Positions 17,622 to 51,385 are shown, counted from the first letter of the stretch. The stretch: 64,000 nucleotides of DNA from Anaerolineae bacterium (GCA_041479245.1 JBGOXS010000015.1:7446-71445); one strand, 5' to 3'. The notes: generated from the sequence alone by a model not told the origin. Translations and numbers: made by a program.

Positions 17622-18203
17622 AAAGTATCCGCCTGTTCATGAGCGGGGGTCCAATGATGGAAACGATGAATTTTTTGTACACAATAGAGGTAATCAATAC
17701 AACCTCTCATATCTGACGAGCATAATAGACAGGTTATGCCTGAACTAAAAAACCTCCCAGCATTTACGCCAGGAGGCTTTTTATGATCTGAAACAATGAT
17801 GCTAAGGGTAATTTATGAACAGTTGAAGCTATGCACGAAGAATCCTACAAATGGCACTATGAGTCGATAAATTTCACGACAAAAACATCATTTGGTAGAC
17901 AATCCTTCAAGTGATTATTCGAAATTCATTTCCATCATAGAGTGTGCTTCAACCTTTGAGTAGGTTATATCGAGATAGGATTTTCCCTGCCAGCTGCATA
18001 ATTATTTGGGTAATTGCGACTGGTGTCTAAGTAAGGGATTTAGCGGCTAACTTTTGTTTCCTTGGAGGAGAAGCAAGTCGAATTGTGTGGAAATGTAGGG
18101 ATTGAATAGAAAGCTTGGATGTGTCAGCCTTGTGGACGTGAAAGCGGAAGTCTTTAATCACCTGGCAACCTAGGAGCGGCAGGATTATTAGGATGATTGC
18201 GTT

Positions 18204-45583: not shown

Positions 45584-46096
45584 GTGTCTGACCCACATTC
45601 TCCATTACGTCTGAATGTCGGCTTTGTTGTTGCTCAATCTGCAGGGTTCAGCCGGGACATCCCTTTCGATCTCCCGCAAATATACATCCCTCCGGATTTG
45701 CGTTTAAGCGGACTATTCGGAAATGTAAGGGCAACCCGTACCCCACAAGGTATCCTGCTGCAGGTAATATTTCAAACCTTGATCGACCTCGAATGCGTGC
45801 GCTGCCTAACCAGTTTTCAGCAAACCCTGAATTTCGAATTCACCGAATTGTACGCCGTTTCTCAGCGTTACATGACTGATTCGGGTTTAATCATGCCTGA
45901 CACGGGGTTCATCGACCTCACACCCGTGCTGCGGGAGTATATTTTACTCGAGATTCCTATCAGTCCATTATGCCGGCCGGATTGCAAAGGTTTATGCCCA
46001 ATATGCGGGAATAACCTGAATGAAAGTACCTGTCATCACGAGGAAGACTCTGGTGATCCCAGATTGGCCTCTCTGAAATCGCTCCTGGATAAATAG
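45584..46096 (+). CDS. yceD: YceD/DUF177 family protein
   Basis: 170 aa, C-terminal CRPDCKGLCPICGNNLNE zinc-ribbon typical of DUF177. GTG start. Confidence 0.8.
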   Translation: MSDPHSPLRLNVGFVVAQSAGFSRDIPFDLPQIYIPPDLRLSGLFGNVRATRTPQGILLQVIFQTLIDLECVRCLTSFQQTLNFEFTELYAVSQRYMTDSGLIMPDTGFIDLTPVLREYILLEIPISPLCRPDCKGLCPICGNNLNESTCHHEEDSGDPRLASLKSLLDK

Positions 46097-46122
46097 ACAC
46101 ATCATACAATAGGAGGGAAAAA

Positions 46123-47325
46123 ATGGTTAATCCAAATCCACAGCCGCAAAAAGTAGAAGCACTGGATACATTACTGGAGAAAGCCGATCTGCAAGGCTAC
46201 CTGACCACCGGGGATATCCTTGAAGTTTTTCCATGGGACGGAGAAGACGATGAGAACCTGTTGGAGCTGTTCGGGCTGCTGCACCGGCAGGGTGTCGAAA
46301 TCGTGATCGAAGAGGACACGGAACCAGAACCCGACCTCACCAAGCTCGACAGCACTGCCCTGGATTTCAACCCTACTACTCTCGAAGCACCTCTGCTCCC
46401 CAGCCTGGAGAATATCTCCGCCGACGACAGCGTGGGGCTTTATCTTAAAGAAATGTCACGCGTTCCCCTGCTTTCCCTGGAAGAGGAGGTCAACCTGGCG
46501 CAGAGAATCGAGCTTGCTACGGATTGCAAAGCCAGGCTCATTAGGATGAACGGCAAAGGGTCGAGCAAACTTCGCAGCGAGCTGGAGGTGGCCATCCAGG
46601 ATGGCATCTTAGCACGTGAGCACCTGATCAAAGCCAATACCCGCCTGGTGGTGAGTGTGGCAAAAAAATATATCGGGCGTGGGGTGGCGTTTCTGGACCT
46701 GATCCAGGAAGGCAACCTGGGACTGATGAAAGCAGTCTCAAAGTTTGAATATCAGCGCGGCTTCCGCTTCTCTACCTATGCCACCTGGTGGATACGGCAG
46801 ACGATCACGCGCTCGATCGCGGACCAGAGCCGGACGATACGCATCCCGGTGCACATGACCGACCGCTTGCGGATGATGTATAAGGCCGCGCATAATCTGG
46901 AGCAACGGTACGGACGGCCGCCCACCCAGGAGGAGCTTTGCCTGGAAATGGGCGTTGGTCATGATAAGCTGCGCTGGATGATCGAGGTCGCCCGCATCCC
47001 AGTCTCACTGGAAAGCCCGGTGGGTGATGAGGATGATACCGAGCTGGGAATGTTTGTTGAAGATACGATCACACCGTCTCCTTCGCAAACGACTTACGAG
47101 AACATGCTGCGCGAACGCGTCGACCAGGTTCTTTCCACGCTTTCACCGCGTGAAGCTCGTATTTTACGGCTGCGCTTTGGTTTGGAAAATGGGCATCCAT
47201 ATACGTTGGAGGAAGTGGGGCATAAGTTCGGTTTGACCCGTGAGCGCATCCGCCAGATCGAGGGTAAGGCGCTGCGCAGGCTGCGCCACCCTTATCGGGC
47301 AAGGCTGCTGCGCGAATATCTCTAA
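46123..47325 (+). CDS. rpoD: RNA polymerase primary sigma factor
   Basis: Regions 1.2-4.2 are recognisable (YLKEMSRVPLL, DLIQEGNLGLMKAV, YATWWIRQTITR, LTRERIRQIEGKALRRL). Confidence 0.95.
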   Translation: MVNPNPQPQKVEALDTLLEKADLQGYLTTGDILEVFPWDGEDDENLLELFGLLHRQGVEIVIEEDTEPEPDLTKLDSTALDFNPTTLEAPLLPSLENISADDSVGLYLKEMSRVPLLSLEEEVNLAQRIELATDCKARLIRMNGKGSSKLRSELEVAIQDGILAREHLIKANTRLVVSVAKKYIGRGVAFLDLIQEGNLGLMKAVSKFEYQRGFRFSTYATWWIRQTITRSIADQSRTIRIPVHMTDRLRMMYKAAHNLEQRYGRPPTQEELCLEMGVGHDKLRWMIEVARIPVSLESPVGDEDDTELGMFVEDTITPSPSQTTYENMLRERVDQVLSTLSPREARILRLRFGLENGHPYTLEEVGHKFGLTRERIRQIEGKALRRLRHPYRARLLREYL

Positions 47326-47361
47326 AGACTGCGGACGAAAGCCTAATCAGCTGTAAATATC

Positions 47362-47390
47362 TTGACAAAAGCCCCCCATCCGTTTAGACT
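47362..47390 (+). promoter_or_regulatory. Promoter of the metG leader
   Basis: TTGACA (47362-47367), 17 nt, TAGACT (47385-47390). Confidence 0.5.
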
Positions 47391-47419
47391 CATTTTTGAT
47401 AATCTAAAAGGTTGGCTGT

Positions 47420-47515
47420 ATGAACGGACATATCCACAACTTATTCGTAATGTCTATGGCCATGATGGAGATAATTCAACGCGCCTGGGCAGCCGGCTTT
47501 GAGGGTGATCAATAA
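47420..47515 (+). CDS. Candidate leader peptide (31 aa) rich in Met codons
   Basis: AAAGG lies 8 nt upstream of the ATG. MNGHIHNLFVMSMAMMEIIQRAWAAGFEGDQ* has four AUG codons within six codons (47450-47467). The ORF ends 22 nt before the terminator stem. Confidence 0.45.
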   Translation: MNGHIHNLFVMSMAMMEIIQRAWAAGFEGDQ

Positions 47516-47537
47516 CCACCATAGGATAAAACATCGA

Positions 47538-47567
47538 GGGCTGCCCGAACCAGGGCAGCCCTTTTTT
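47538..47567 (+). terminator. Intrinsic terminator (attenuator) in the metG leader
   Basis: GGGCTGCCC / GGGCAGCCC 9-bp stem, 6-nt loop, TTTTTT. It lies 50 nt upstream of the metG ATG. Confidence 0.8.
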
Positions 47568-47617
47568 ATGCGGGTAGTTACCAGAGACTTGTATTGAATA
47601 AAAATAAGGAGGACAAA

Positions 47618-49408
47618 ATGTCAAACAACATTCTTATCGCCATCGCCTGGCCATACGCCAACAGCCAGATCCATGTGGGCAACATCACCGGGTCGCACCT
47701 GCCGGGAGATATTGTGGCGCGCTATCACCGCCTCAAAGGTGACCGGGTGTTGATGGTCTCTGGCACCGATTCACATGGCACCCCAGTCACATTGCGCGCA
47801 GATGCAGAGGGTAAGCCGGTGGAAGAGGTGTACCAATTTTTTCACAACCAATTCCTCGAGCTATTCCAAAAAGCAGGTATCAGCTATGACCTGTTCACCA
47901 CCACGCACACAGAAAATCACTTCAAAGTAGCCCAAGCCATGTTCCTGGCGCTGAACGAAAACAACTACCTTTATACCGAGTCGCGCTCTCAGTGGTACTC
48001 TCCGGCAGCCAAACGTTTCCTGCCCGACCGGTATGTGGAAGGCACGTGTTATATCTGCGGTTTCGAGGGAGCCCGGTCTGACCAGTGCGACAATTGTGGC
48101 AATGTGCTTGAGCCCGAGAAGCTGCTCAACCCGCACTCCAAGATTGATGGGTCTACGCCGGAGCTGCGTGAGACCAAGCATTATTTCCTCGATCTTACAA
48201 AGTTGGAGCCTGAGGTGGAGAAGTTCTTATGCGACCGCCAGAGTTACTGGCGCGAGACGGTGATAGGTCAATCGTTGGGGCAGATTGAAAGCGAGGGCCT
48301 ACGCCCACGCCCAATCACGCGCGACCTTGACTGGGGTATCCCGGTGCCTGTGGAGGGCTGGGAGGGCAAATGCCTGTACGTATGGTTTGAGGCGGTCATC
48401 GGTTATCTTTCCGCCACCATTGAGTGGGCACAAATCACGGGTCAGCCCGAAGCCTGGCGAGATTGGTGGACCGACGTATCCGCTAAAACGTTTTACTTCA
48501 TCGGGAAGGATAATATCTTTTTCCACCTTACCATGTGGCCGGCGCAGCTGAAAGGGGCGGGGAAGGAATTCGTGAAGATTTTCGCCGAGGAGGAAGGAAC
48601 CCCCCTCAACCTGCCCTATGACATACCCGCCAACCAGTTTATGAACCTGGAGGGGAAAAAGATCTCTGGTAGCCGGAACTGGGCTATTTGGGGATTGGAT
48701 TTCCTCTCACGCTATGACGCAGATGCGCTGCGATTCTATTTGACGATCAACATGCCGGAATACCACGATTCGGATTGGGATTGGGATGAGTTTATCGCCC
48801 GCAACAACAATGACCTGGTAGCAACCTGGGGCAACCTAGTTAATCGAGCGCTGCCATTTGCCTATAAGCATTGGGATGGGCAGGTTCCCAACCCGGGTGA
48901 TCTCCGTCAGATTGATAAGGATATCATCACAGCTGTAGATGCAGGGTTTCAAACGGTCGGTGAGCACCTGGAAGCTGTCCACCTGAGGGCAGCATTGAGT
49001 GAAGCCTTGCGCCTGGCGAAGGAAGGCAATAAATACCAGGAGGCGACTTCGCCTTGGCATGAGATCAAGACCGATAAGGCTGCCGCGGCGAAATCAATCT
49101 ATACCGCATTGCGAGTGATCGACTCGCTCAAGGTCTTATTCGCCCCGTTCATCCCCTTCAGCAGCGACCGTTTAAATACTTACCTGGGCTATACCCAACC
49201 GCTGTTTGGAGAGCCGTATATCGAAGCGCAGAGTGATATGCTGGGAACTCATAATACCTTGCGCTACCGCCCTCCACAAGCAGGAGGGCGTTGGGAGCCA
49301 TCCACCTTGCAGCCTGGTCAGCGCCTGGTGCAGCCGGCTGCCCTGTTCATAAAGCTGGAGCCAGTTTTAGCTGAGGAAGAACGAAAACGGTTGGGGAAGA
49401 CCGGTTAA
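47618..49408 (+). CDS. metG: Methionine--tRNA ligase
   Basis: AAGGAGGA RBS. AWPYANSQIHVGNITG (HIGH region), Zn knuckles CYICG/CDNCG, KISGSRNW (KMSKS region). Confidence 0.95.
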   Translation: MSNNILIAIAWPYANSQIHVGNITGSHLPGDIVARYHRLKGDRVLMVSGTDSHGTPVTLRADAEGKPVEEVYQFFHNQFLELFQKAGISYDLFTTTHTENHFKVAQAMFLALNENNYLYTESRSQWYSPAAKRFLPDRYVEGTCYICGFEGARSDQCDNCGNVLEPEKLLNPHSKIDGSTPELRETKHYFLDLTKLEPEVEKFLCDRQSYWRETVIGQSLGQIESEGLRPRPITRDLDWGIPVPVEGWEGKCLYVWFEAVIGYLSATIEWAQITGQPEAWRDWWTDVSAKTFYFIGKDNIFFHLTMWPAQLKGAGKEFVKIFAEEEGTPLNLPYDIPANQFMNLEGKKISGSRNWAIWGLDFLSRYDADALRFYLTINMPEYHDSDWDWDEFIARNNNDLVATWGNLVNRALPFAYKHWDGQVPNPGDLRQIDKDIITAVDAGFQTVGEHLEAVHLRAALSEALRLAKEGNKYQEATSPWHEIKTDKAAAAKSIYTALRVIDSLKVLFAPFIPFSSDRLNTYLGYTQPLFGEPYIEAQSDMLGTHNTLRYRPPQAGGRWEPSTLQPGQRLVQPAALFIKLEPVLAEEERKRLGKTG

Positions 49409-49480
49409 GACTAACCAGCTTTTTACCTCCACCCCATGGAATGGAAGGTATAATCGCTTTCTGTTGGGAGGCGACCTTCG

Positions 49481-50080
49481 ATGACCAGTCCTGTCAGAAC
49501 TGAGAAACTTAGCAAGACCTACGAGGTGCGCGCTCGCAAGGGTCTGTTTAAATCTGAGCATCGTTCGGTTGAGGCGCTGAACTCGATCACCCTGGAAGTT
49601 AACCAGGGCGAGGTCTTCGGGCTGCTCGGACCAAACGGTGCCGGCAAAACCACCCTGATCAAAATACTGACCACCTTGTTGCTGCCCACCAGCGGTAGTG
49701 CCTGGATCAATGGATTTAACGTCACCCAAGATGAGAATAAAGTGCGCGGCAGTGTGGGCTGCATGTTAATGGGTGAGCGTGGGCTATACTGGAAGCTGAC
49801 CGGCCGCGAAAACCTGGAATATTTTGGGGCGCTTTACCACCTCGACCCGGCACAGCGATATATGAGGCTGCCTCGTGTGCCCCGTTCACCCGAGCTTTCC
49901 AATTGGGGTCAGGCTTTGTCATCACCAGCACATCTTTATAACCCAGCGACATCAAGTGAACCGGGGTTTTCGTTCAATTTTCCAGGACAAAATAAGCACG
50001 CGGTTCGGAGGTCGGGTGAGAAGCCTGGATTTCCACCCCTGCAGGCATCTCCGCACTTCCAGGCGTTAGCCTCTCGATAA
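49481..50080 (+). pseudogene. Truncated ABC transporter ATPase (only the N-terminal ~125 aa are ABC-like)
   Basis: Walker A GPNGAGKTT and the Q-loop region are present up to ...LEYFGALYHLDPAQR (about 49860). The reading frame then runs into non-ABC sequence. There is no LSGGQ signature, no Walker B and no permease gene. Confidence 0.6.
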
Positions 50081-50209
50081 ACCATAATCCATTTTAGGTT
50101 CCGAAGCGATCGCTAGATACACGCTGAGAAGGCCTGTTCCCAGCATCAACAGGAACACACCGGTCAATCTGATCAGCGCCTGGAAATAAATTAATGAAGA
50201 TAACTGCTT

Positions 50210-51385
50210 CTACTCCACAATCTCCTCAATGTTGAAGCCTCGCCGCCTGAGCTCCCCCATAAAGGGAACTGCCGGCACAAAAGTTTCAACCCCACCGGCG
50301 CCACGTGGGGTCTGGCCGTGCGCCATCATCTCGGCGACAATGGCCGCATCCCAGCCGGTGGTGCGTTCCATGGCGGTAAAGCCGGTCTTCTCATCGAATC
50401 GGTCCACCAGCTCCACCAATGCCTGTGCGGGACGACCATTCTTCTTCCCTAACACCTTCACCCGCACCAGCACGATATCCTTGCCTTTCTCAGGGTCGTT
50501 GCGGAATGTTACTTTAGGTTCATATAAGGCATGGAATACATCCCTTGGGATCACCTCTCCCTGTTTCAGAGCAATGGATTTCAAATCCCACAACCCCAGG
50601 TCCCAGAAGGCCCGCAGCTGGTTGAGGTGCCCTGGGTAGCGTAGGGTGAGGTTTTGCAGCGTCCGCAGCTTGCCTTCAAACGTCCAGGGCATGGTGCTGG
50701 TGCCGCCGCCTGCCACAAAGGCTTCCAATGTGCCTGCCGAATCGGGGAATTCCACCGTCTCGAGCTCGGTCATGGGTTCAACCTGGGTGACCTTTCCGTT
50801 GCGCAGGAAGATAGCTGGTTCGGCATATTCATTGGTCAGCCCGGCAACGTGAAAAGTGAGTAAATAATTGAAGGGAGGCTGAGGATTTTGTGGCAGACCT
50901 CCATCCCACATATACACATCGCTGGCTTCATCCAGCAGACCCATGGCATAAACCGTTAAGGAGGTGCCCAAACCGGGCACCTGACCACAGTCAGGGATGA
51001 TGCTGATCCCTGCCTGCCGAGCCTGGTCATTAAATCCGTGCTGCTGTCGGGCAATATCCGTGTTGCCGCCCAGGTCGCACATGCTGGCTTTCACTTTGAT
51101 GGCTACGCGGGTGATATCCAGGTTGTAATAATAGGGGACCGCACTGACGAAGGCATGCACACCGGTAAGGGCGCGTTCGAGGGCCGCCATGTCGGTCACA
51201 TCGACCCGCATACCCTCGGCAATATTCTTCCCGATCAGATTATTCACGCGTTGAGCTGACCGTTCTGCGATAGCCAAATCCTGGTCGATCAGGATGACCT
51301 TTTTCGCTTCACCCCAGCGGGCCATATCATAGGCTGAAGCTGTTCCCTGCCTTCCGGCGCCTAAAACTGCATATATATATTCCAT
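50210..51385 (-). CDS. Saccharopine dehydrogenase family protein
   Basis: N-terminal Rossmann YAVLGAGRQG, 391 aa, typical SDH-family C-terminal domain. Confidence 0.8.
   Translation of the reverse strand: MEYIYAVLGAGRQGTASAYDMARWGEAKKVILIDQDLAIAERSAQRVNNLIGKNIAEGMRVDVTDMAALERALTGVHAFVSAVPYYYNLDITRVAIKVKASMCDLGGNTDIARQQHGFNDQARQAGISIIPDCGQVPGLGTSLTVYAMGLLDEASDVYMWDGGLPQNPQPPFNYLLTFHVAGLTNEYAEPAIFLRNGKVTQVEPMTELETVEFPDSAGTLEAFVAGGGTSTMPWTFEGKLRTLQNLTLRYPGHLNQLRAFWDLGLWDLKSIALKQGEVIPRDVFHALYEPKVTFRNDPEKGKDIVLVRVKVLGKKNGRPAQALVELVDRFDEKTGFTAMERTTGWDAAIVAEMMAHGQTPRGAGGVETFVPAVPFMGELRRRGFNIEEIVE

Follow-up and report, generated by a model that had tools for sequence, protein, structure and literature searches.

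How is the methionyl-tRNA synthetase gene metG controlled in an Anaerolineae bacterium in which a short, methionine-rich ORF and a transcription terminator lie between the promoter and the gene? Leader-peptide attenuation is textbook knowledge for Trp, His, Leu, Thr, Ile/Val and Phe, and it extends to a few aminoacyl-tRNA synthetase genes, i.e., pheST, trpS and leuS. The known regulation of methionine genes relies on MetJ, S-box/SAM riboswitches and T-boxes. The locus studied here lies in a window of 64,000 nucleotides, which is the whole stretch of DNA that was analysed, and a preliminary description of this window proposed that metG is subject to ribosome-mediated attenuation responding to Met-tRNA charging. 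The analysis reported below points, with a probability of roughly 0.8, to a ribosome-mediated leader-peptide transcription attenuator that would couple metG transcription to charged elongator tRNA-Met. The leader would most likely raise MetRS production when charged Met tRNA runs short.

The preliminary description had placed a TTGACA-17-TAGACT promoter and a 31-codon ORF with the codons M-S-M-A-M-M in front of metG, and all three are present as described (Table 1). The promoter agrees with the consensus at 10 of 12 positions and is the top promoter-like site within 46000-50500. The leader ORF encodes the peptide MNGHIHNLFVMSMAMMEIIQRAWAAGFEGDQ, in which the Met cluster occupies codons 11-16. 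The window contains 432 ORFs of 20-60 codons that begin with ATG, and no other of these has at least four Met in six codons. The ORF was also said to be preceded by a ribosome-binding site. This part of the description stands only in that a motif is present; however, the Shine–Dalgarno sequence is weak, consisting of AAGG only (47408-47411, 8 nt 5′ of the ATG), and it lies within a predicted helix. Two other observations in the window concern neighbouring or distant sequence. An ORF at 49481-50080 (+) starts like an ABC-transporter ATPase, with a Walker A motif GPNGAGKTT, and this likeness fades after ~125 residues; the signature and Walker B motifs are apparently absent as judged by eye, and the ORF is probably a truncated or frameshifted gene. 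A second attenuator considered at 17776-17753 (-), the only further terminator of the window in a 5′-proximal position, was rejected, as the hairpin there is most likely the terminator of the upstream PHP-domain gene. Within 17753-17937 (-), a mini-ORF (MMEMNFE) is found ~140 nt before this hairpin, which itself lies 131 nt 5′ of a PAS/HAMP histidine-kinase gene.

Table 1. Features of the metG leader and its surroundings in the window (positions counted from the first nucleotide of the window).
Feature	Position	Strand	Evidence or remarks
Sigma-70-type promoter	47362..47390	+	TTGACA 47362-47367, 17-nt spacer, TAGACT 47385-47390
Region 1, 5′ strand of helix P1 (anti-antiterminator)	47408..47419	+	MFE of the whole leader; contains AAGG
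Leader ORF, 31 codons + TAA	47420..47515	+	ATG 47420, TAA 47513-47515
Met-codon cluster, proposed stall site	47450..47467	+	AUG at 47450, 47456, 47462, 47465
CGCGCC motif directly 5′ of region 2	47480..47485	+	Alignment A2
Region 2, antiterminator 5′ strand, UGGGCAGCC	47486..47494	+	Overlaps the P1 3′ strand at 47489-47494
Region 3, terminator 5′ arm, common to the antiterminator	47536..47546	+	Sequence and folding
Region 4, terminator 3′ arm (47553-47563) and T-run (47562-47567)	47553..47567	+	Sequence and folding
metG Shine–Dalgarno sequence AAGGAGG	47606..47612	+	Sequence
metG, methionyl-tRNA synthetase, 596 aa	47618..49408	+	Pfam tRNA-synt_1g E=3.7e-135, Anticodon_3

The RNA elements of the preliminary description also held up in the folding calculations. 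The terminator stem (47536-47546/47553-47563) comprises 11 bp, eight of which are G-C, with the loop GAACCA and a following T6, and exhibits an energy of -24.1 kcal/mol (z=-6.0). The upstream 8-nt segment that had been said to complement the terminator arm, GGGCAGCC (47487-47494), matches 47539-47546 exactly as its reverse complement; when the 64-nt interval is shuffled, an exact complement of at least 8 nt to the arm turns up 0.36% of the time (p=0.0036 for the window alone). With one further pair, this gives a 9-bp antiterminator helix (2:3) between 47486-47494 and 47539-47547. Folding additionally predicts a 12-bp helix P1 (1:2) between 47408-47419 and 47489-47500, which encloses the Met cluster and contains the Shine–Dalgarno sequence. 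The helices 1:2, 2:3 and 3:4 are mutually exclusive in the folding of the window leader. Folding of 47483-47549, from which region 4 is missing, yields the 9-bp 2:3 helix as the MFE structure; once region 4 is included, the terminator takes its place. The ribosome-free full-length leader adopts P1 plus the terminator as its MFE structure, with -56.2 kcal/mol vs. -43.0 kcal/mol for the most stable state containing the antiterminator. Even when the RNA 3′ of a stalled ribosome is folded alone, the terminator (-24 kcal/mol) keeps its thermodynamic advantage, so antitermination would have to be kinetic, like that of the classical attenuators.

These elements can be combined into a predicted course of events. 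Transcription would begin at about 47397-47399, and a ribosome would translate the 31-codon leader ORF with RNA polymerase ahead of it. When Met-tRNA(Met) is scarce, the ribosome would stall with one of the four AUG codons of the cluster in its A site, its front edge at ~47480 leaving region 2 exposed. Region 1 lies upstream of the Met codons, and the stalled ribosome would therefore sit inside the loop of the 1:2 helix and keep this helix open. Region 2 would pair with the terminator 5′ arm upon its emergence, the terminator hairpin would be blocked, and the polymerase would read through into metG. When Met-tRNA is plentiful, the ribosome would reach the UAA codon and occupy ~47495-47528, thereby separating region 2 from region 3. 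This ribosome would sterically block the 2:3 helix and/or region 2 would re-pair with region 1, and the 3:4 terminator would form, releasing a transcript of ~170 nt. Without translation, helices 1:2 and 3:4 would form together, making termination the predicted default. Low MetRS activity would lower fMet-tRNA as well and thereby reduce leader initiation, in which case termination would be favoured where 1:2 forms.

Relatives of the locus were gathered by a MetRS protein search of genomes and metagenomes, which returned proteins 45-87% identical to the window MetRS (best genome match 76%, best metagenome match 87%) and placed the window in an Anaerolineales-like member of Chloroflexota; individual loci carry L numbers below. 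The preliminary description had made its reading depend on the conservation of the leader ORF and its Met run, and both are kept in relatives: at least 70 non-redundant loci from Anaerolineae combine a Met-rich short ORF, a terminator and a complementary segment in front of metG. This set consists of 70 elements after removal of duplicates, with further ones recognised by eye (L014, L028, L030, L102, L120, L141 and L148). Most of the Anaerolineae metG loci examined carry the element, whatever the upstream gene is (a YceD-family gene or others); the terminator is found in all family members, and the promoter (TTGACA/TAnnnT) lies at the same position in the relatives. The element is absent from the examined Anaerolineae loci L012, L020, L034, L041, L042 and L045 and from the examined loci of Chloroflexales, Actinomycetota and Dormibacteraeota. 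The window and 160 loci (1.89 Mb) were scanned on both strands with a detector that requires a short ORF with at least three Met in seven codons and, no more than 75 nt away, a terminator; its 60 matches all lie directly upstream of metG or of a metG operon. In L148 (441-1483), a leaderless Met leader and a terminator are followed by a 271-aa ORF and then directly by metG, and the attenuator would therefore control a two-gene operon there.

This distribution bears on the idea that the arrangement is due to chance, the hairpin serving only to terminate the sigma-factor gene upstream. The genes 5′ of the leader in the window are a YceD-family gene and a sigma-70 gene, and the latter ends at 47325, 210 nt before the hairpin, which is what lends this idea some appeal. 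However, a consensus promoter lies between the sigma-70 gene and the hairpin, the upstream gene varies in relatives while the element stays with metG, and L042 possesses a separate sigma-gene terminator and no Met leader. The chance estimates made on the window alone are small as well. With the comparative data at hand, this explanation appears effectively refuted, and it is the least credible of those weighed here.

Several loci depart from the common plan. No stop codon ends the Met-leader ORF of L026 ahead of the terminator. Only one or two scattered Met codons remain in L126/L136, L143 and L065, although the leaderless ORF, region 2 and the terminator are all preserved there. Palindromic repeats (GTCATTGCGAGG...GCAATCTC...), MITE- or REP-like, are found between the terminator and metG in L009, L011, L016 and L021; the distance from terminator to metG, which ranges from 21 to 255 nt in the family, varies because of such inserts in several relatives. 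Since this distance is unconstrained, a translational coupling of leader and metG was considered unlikely and rejected. L098 (1119-1266, -) and L045 (2605-2767, -), two loci without a Met leader, each carry a cobalamin riboswitch upstream of metG on the opposite strand.

The reading frame of the leader was examined as a check on the ORF. The family ORFs are 18-41 codons long in the 70 loci, and Met accounts for 280 of their 1925 codons (14.5%), with two to seven per leader. ATG triplets are distributed over the three frames as 280/14/11 in this set, which was chosen on Met content. Because of that selection, the test was repeated in a promoter-anchored manner, using the pattern TTGAC-N-TAnnnT-N5-8-ATG without regard to Met content and counting ATG over the next 90 nt. 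The counts were 144, 14 and 13 for frames 0, 1 and 2, and no such in-frame enrichment was seen at the other promoter-proximal ATGs in the data. In ~50 of the 70 loci, the -10 box ends 6-7 nt 5′ of the leader ATG, which pins down the start codon without recourse to the Met run and, as a signature judged by the -10 spacing, suggests that the leader ORF of most relatives lies on a leaderless mRNA. Leaderless-type starts include L005, L010, L011, L015, L017-L019, L022-L024, L029 and L033-L040. The window and L001, L002, L004, L008, L081, L088, L099 and L141 possess a 5′ UTR of ~22 nt with AAAGG-like Shine–Dalgarno sequences. The ORFs of the window clade are preceded by AAGG/GGAAGG, and the aligned leader start is ATG, TTG or GTG in the closest relatives of the window. 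The ~22-nt 5′ UTR with its weak Shine–Dalgarno sequence was either acquired or retained in this clade.

The Met codons themselves are mostly arranged as M-x-M (131 of 210 Met gaps), adjacent M-M accounting for only 26 gaps, and x is mostly S, A, P, E, R, L or T. As the MxM spacing resembles Cu(I)-binding Mets motifs and the ORF has its own promoter and terminator, one could regard the element as an independent gene for a Met-rich micropeptide that merely adjoins metG. In the family leaders, however, no conservation of the peptide sequence was found beyond the Met run and the residues encoded by the RNA helices. Moreover, the element is always co-oriented with and directly 5′ of metG or its operon despite changing neighbours, and a micropeptide gene would leave the conserved complement to the terminator arm without a role. 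Such a gene is therefore a very improbable explanation.

A different kind of alternative dispenses with translation altogether. The leader, as a structured RNA of ~170 nt comprising the P1 hairpin and the terminator, could be an RNA switch that responds to a ligand, to uncharged tRNA-Met in the manner of a T-box, or to MetRS itself, or it could be a trans-acting sRNA. The MetRS variant of this idea invokes anticodon mimicry at the AUG/CAU-rich apex of P1; autoregulation by anticodon mimicry is known for E. coli thrS. The full leader indeed folds better than shuffled sequences (z=-4.4), P1-like hairpins around the Met cluster recur, and the CAUG palindromes in the cluster can form small apical hairpins. 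The CGCGCC motif 5′ of region 2 is conserved in clades A and B and is kept even beyond the leader stop in L006 and L141, so the constraint on it acts at the RNA or DNA level; it is perhaps a pause signal. Against such a switch, the ATGs lie in one stop-free frame running from an ATG at the transcription start, and the length of the peptide and the position of its stop codon follow a ribosome-sized spacing. Only 35% of the in-frame ATGs are preceded by C, showing that CAU is not the conserved feature, and binding of MetRS or tRNA to CAU triplets was rejected for this reason. Searches with Rfam 15 gave no match to the T-box (RF00230), SAM or other riboswitches at E<=10 in 47200-47800, and no relevant match at the gathering score in the whole window or in 36 related loci, 18 of which bear the element. 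The relatives without a Met leader have no T-box in Rfam searches either. The sole weak Rfam match in the leader is that of the terminator hairpin to Listeria sbrA, with 16.7 bits vs. a cutoff of 45 bits. Taken with the frame and spacing, these results leave a translation-independent switch or sRNA unlikely.

Whether the two competing helices are maintained across the family was examined by a test in which the region between the last Met codon and the terminator was paired with its own terminator arm or with the arms of other terminator classes or clades. This region prefers its own arm, with a mean duplex energy of -14.6 vs. -11.2 kcal/mol (Wilcoxon p=3e-10, a value that is inflated, like the other family p-values, because the loci counted are not phylogenetically independent). 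The terminator classes differ by clade (GGCUGYCC; CCGCCAGCCUCGGCUGGCGG; CCGUCUGUCC...ACAGGCGG), and region 2 changes in step with the class (GGRCAGCC; GCCGAGGCU; GGACAGACGG). Coordinated changes were also found at single loci, i.e., UGUUU/AAACA in L066 and UCUGC/GCAGA in L039 and L126. A single global MAFFT alignment (A2) was discarded for covariation analysis, as region 2 of clades A and B fell into different columns; the own-vs-swapped test and an alignment of clade D were used for this reason. The latter (A3) comprises 14 D-clade leaders aligned with MAFFT and was not fitted to the structure. In this alignment, 85.7% of the antiterminator cells are paired vs. 36-50% with a slid partner, and four antiterminator pairs change on both sides, a count found in 9 of 500 shuffles. 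The D-clade terminator pairs in 97% of cells and hardly varies at all. The terminator arm is also nearly invariant within clades A and B, so the co-variation derives mainly from differences between clades. For helix 1:2, own partners are favoured over swapped ones (-13.8 vs. -11.8 kcal/mol, p=4e-5, likewise inflated), z falls below -1.64 in only 24% of loci, and 1:2 helices of differing sequence occur, such as GCUUUCC/GGAAAGC in L010 and GCCUUCC/GGAAGGC in L021. The family-wide support for this helix is modest.

The spacing of the elements is compatible with ribosomes at two positions. The distance from the last Met codon to region 2 has a median of 13 nt (IQR 11-17), that from region 2 to the stop codon a median of 3 nt (IQR 0-12), and that from the stop codon to the terminator arm a median of 23 nt (IQR 22-28, minimum 18). 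Judged from these distances, the median start of region 2 would lie just past the front of a ribosome that has stalled on the last Met codon, a terminating ribosome would cover region 2 in most relatives, where the segment lies 0-12 nt 5′ of the stop, and the gap between stop and arm would leave space for the hairpin before a ribosome at the stop codon. The corresponding values in the window are ~18, 18 and 20 nt, placing it at the long end of the family for the distance from region 2 to the stop. The preliminary description held that a ribosome at the stop codon masks 47487-47494. This is predicted for most relatives but not for the window, in which the stop codon lies 19 nt past the core complement, so that the ribosome would abut rather than cover the segment.

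For 55 of the 70 loci, the terminator is the ground state predicted without a ribosome, and in the other 15, including strong D-clade antiterminators such as that of L033, the antiterminator is then as stable or more stable. These 15 loci raise the question of whether the leader ORF might sense general translation capacity or initiation (ribosomes, fMet-tRNA) rather than Met-tRNA(Met), with readthrough whenever translation does not get as far as the stop codon, as termination in them would need a ribosome at the stop. Leaderless initiation depends on initiator tRNA, and so would the leaderless start of these leaders. However, a general sensor does not account for the Met cluster, which is the sole strongly conserved feature of the peptide and is placed 11-17 nt before region 2, i.e., where a codon-specific stall sensor needs it, and the terminator ground state of the 55 loci also argues against it. 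General sensing is accordingly regarded as unlikely. A combination of both ideas, a dual sensor in which the leaderless AUG reports fMet-tRNA(fMet) and the internal AUGs report elongator Met-tRNA(Met), is possible but doubtful. In such a dual sensor, failure of either initiation or elongation would lead to readthrough in loci with an antiterminator ground state (such as L033, L037 and L108), and the M-x-M periodicity and CGCGCC may belong to a design specialised for stalling and pausing. If the dual sensor were true, it would be the first Met-codon attenuator and would show a solution to the problem that Met starvation also blocks initiation.

Attenuation by elongator Met-tRNA, the preferred reading, draws its support from conservation in the family, the single reading frame, the tracking of the terminator arm by region 2, the spacing and the lack of an Rfam match, all of which are properties of the sequences. 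Weighing against it are the weak Shine–Dalgarno sequence inside P1 and the wide gap between region 2 and the stop codon in the window, the thermodynamic advantage of the terminator, the modest support for helix 1:2, the expected drop in fMet-tRNA at low MetRS activity, the lineages with one or two Met codons and the Anaerolineae loci that lack the element. The family displays the features of the attenuator class, i.e., a short ORF between promoter and gene, a cluster of cognate codons, a terminator, an exclusive antiterminator and ribosome-compatible spacing. In E. coli pheST, a Phe-codon leader peptide and an antiterminator/terminator pair precede an aminoacyl-tRNA synthetase operon. The metG leader resembles it in having an ORF of cognate codons and alternative helices before a synthetase gene, with low charged tRNA predicted to give more synthetase. 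It differs in the amino acid concerned, Met, which has one codon only and uses it for initiation too, in that it occurs in Chloroflexota and is mostly leaderless, and in that there is no sequence or Rfam relationship. With the trp/his/leu/thr attenuators, the metG leader would share the 1:2, 2:3, 3:4 logic, albeit with modest family-wide support for 1:2, as well as the predicted default termination in the untranslated state and a stop codon at which a finishing ribosome would prevent 2:3. In contrast to these attenuators, region 1 of the metG leader does not overlap the regulatory codons but precedes them, being located in the 5′ UTR of the window leader and at codons 3-8 of the leaderless relatives. 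Moreover, control would be exerted on a synthetase instead of a biosynthetic operon, and the Met codons are mostly M-x-M and do not form a run.

Further known or candidate systems sense the charging of tRNA or the supply of one amino acid. Met T-box riboswitches upstream of metS/metG in Firmicutes bind uncharged tRNA directly, which requires a Stem I carrying the specifier loop as well as the conserved T-box sequence, with a UGGN bulge in the antiterminator. The metG leader would likewise sense tRNA-Met charging to control MetRS by antitermination, but Stem I, the specifier loop and the T-box sequence are undetectable in it. Candidate attenuators of Streptomyces trpS and leuS were reported in a computational study, which found no conserved RNA regulatory structure upstream of the methionine operons of Actinobacteria and which cites pheST as a precedent (Seliverstov et al. 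2005, PMC1262725). Both these candidates and the metG leader are predicted leader-peptide attenuators of aminoacyl-tRNA synthetase genes outside Proteobacteria, differing in amino acid and phylum. In mycobacteria, leaderless poly-Cys sORFs have been reported to exert a translational control in which stalling unmasks a downstream RBS (Canestrari et al., bioRxiv 10.1101/834739). The likeness to this system lies in a leaderless sensory ORF at which stalling for one amino acid raises downstream expression; the output of the metG leader, in contrast, would be an intrinsic terminator with a T-run, and the metG Shine–Dalgarno sequence lies 40-250 nt beyond. The preliminary description knew of no such mechanism for metG, and in agreement with this, no Met-codon attenuator and no metG leader peptide were found in full-text searches of the literature, outside of which lies the Russian-language survey of Lopatovskaya et al. 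2010.

If the proposed attenuation is correct, the element would be the first well-supported cis-regulator of an aminoacyl-tRNA synthetase gene in the Anaerolineae, a large and poorly cultured group. Its interest lies in the unusual choice of Met as an amino acid to be sensed by stalling, in its class-wide conservation, and in the joint use of leaderless translation and an intrinsic terminator in most loci; it predicts that leaderless "leader" ORFs can drive intrinsic-terminator attenuation. The element also marks a small, predicted translated ORF that gene callers miss, and it may find use as a small reporter for Met-tRNA charging or MetRS inhibition. As AUG is also the start codon, and the charging of initiator tRNA needs the same enzyme, the metG leader would offer a natural test case for the sensing of ribosome stalls at AUG.
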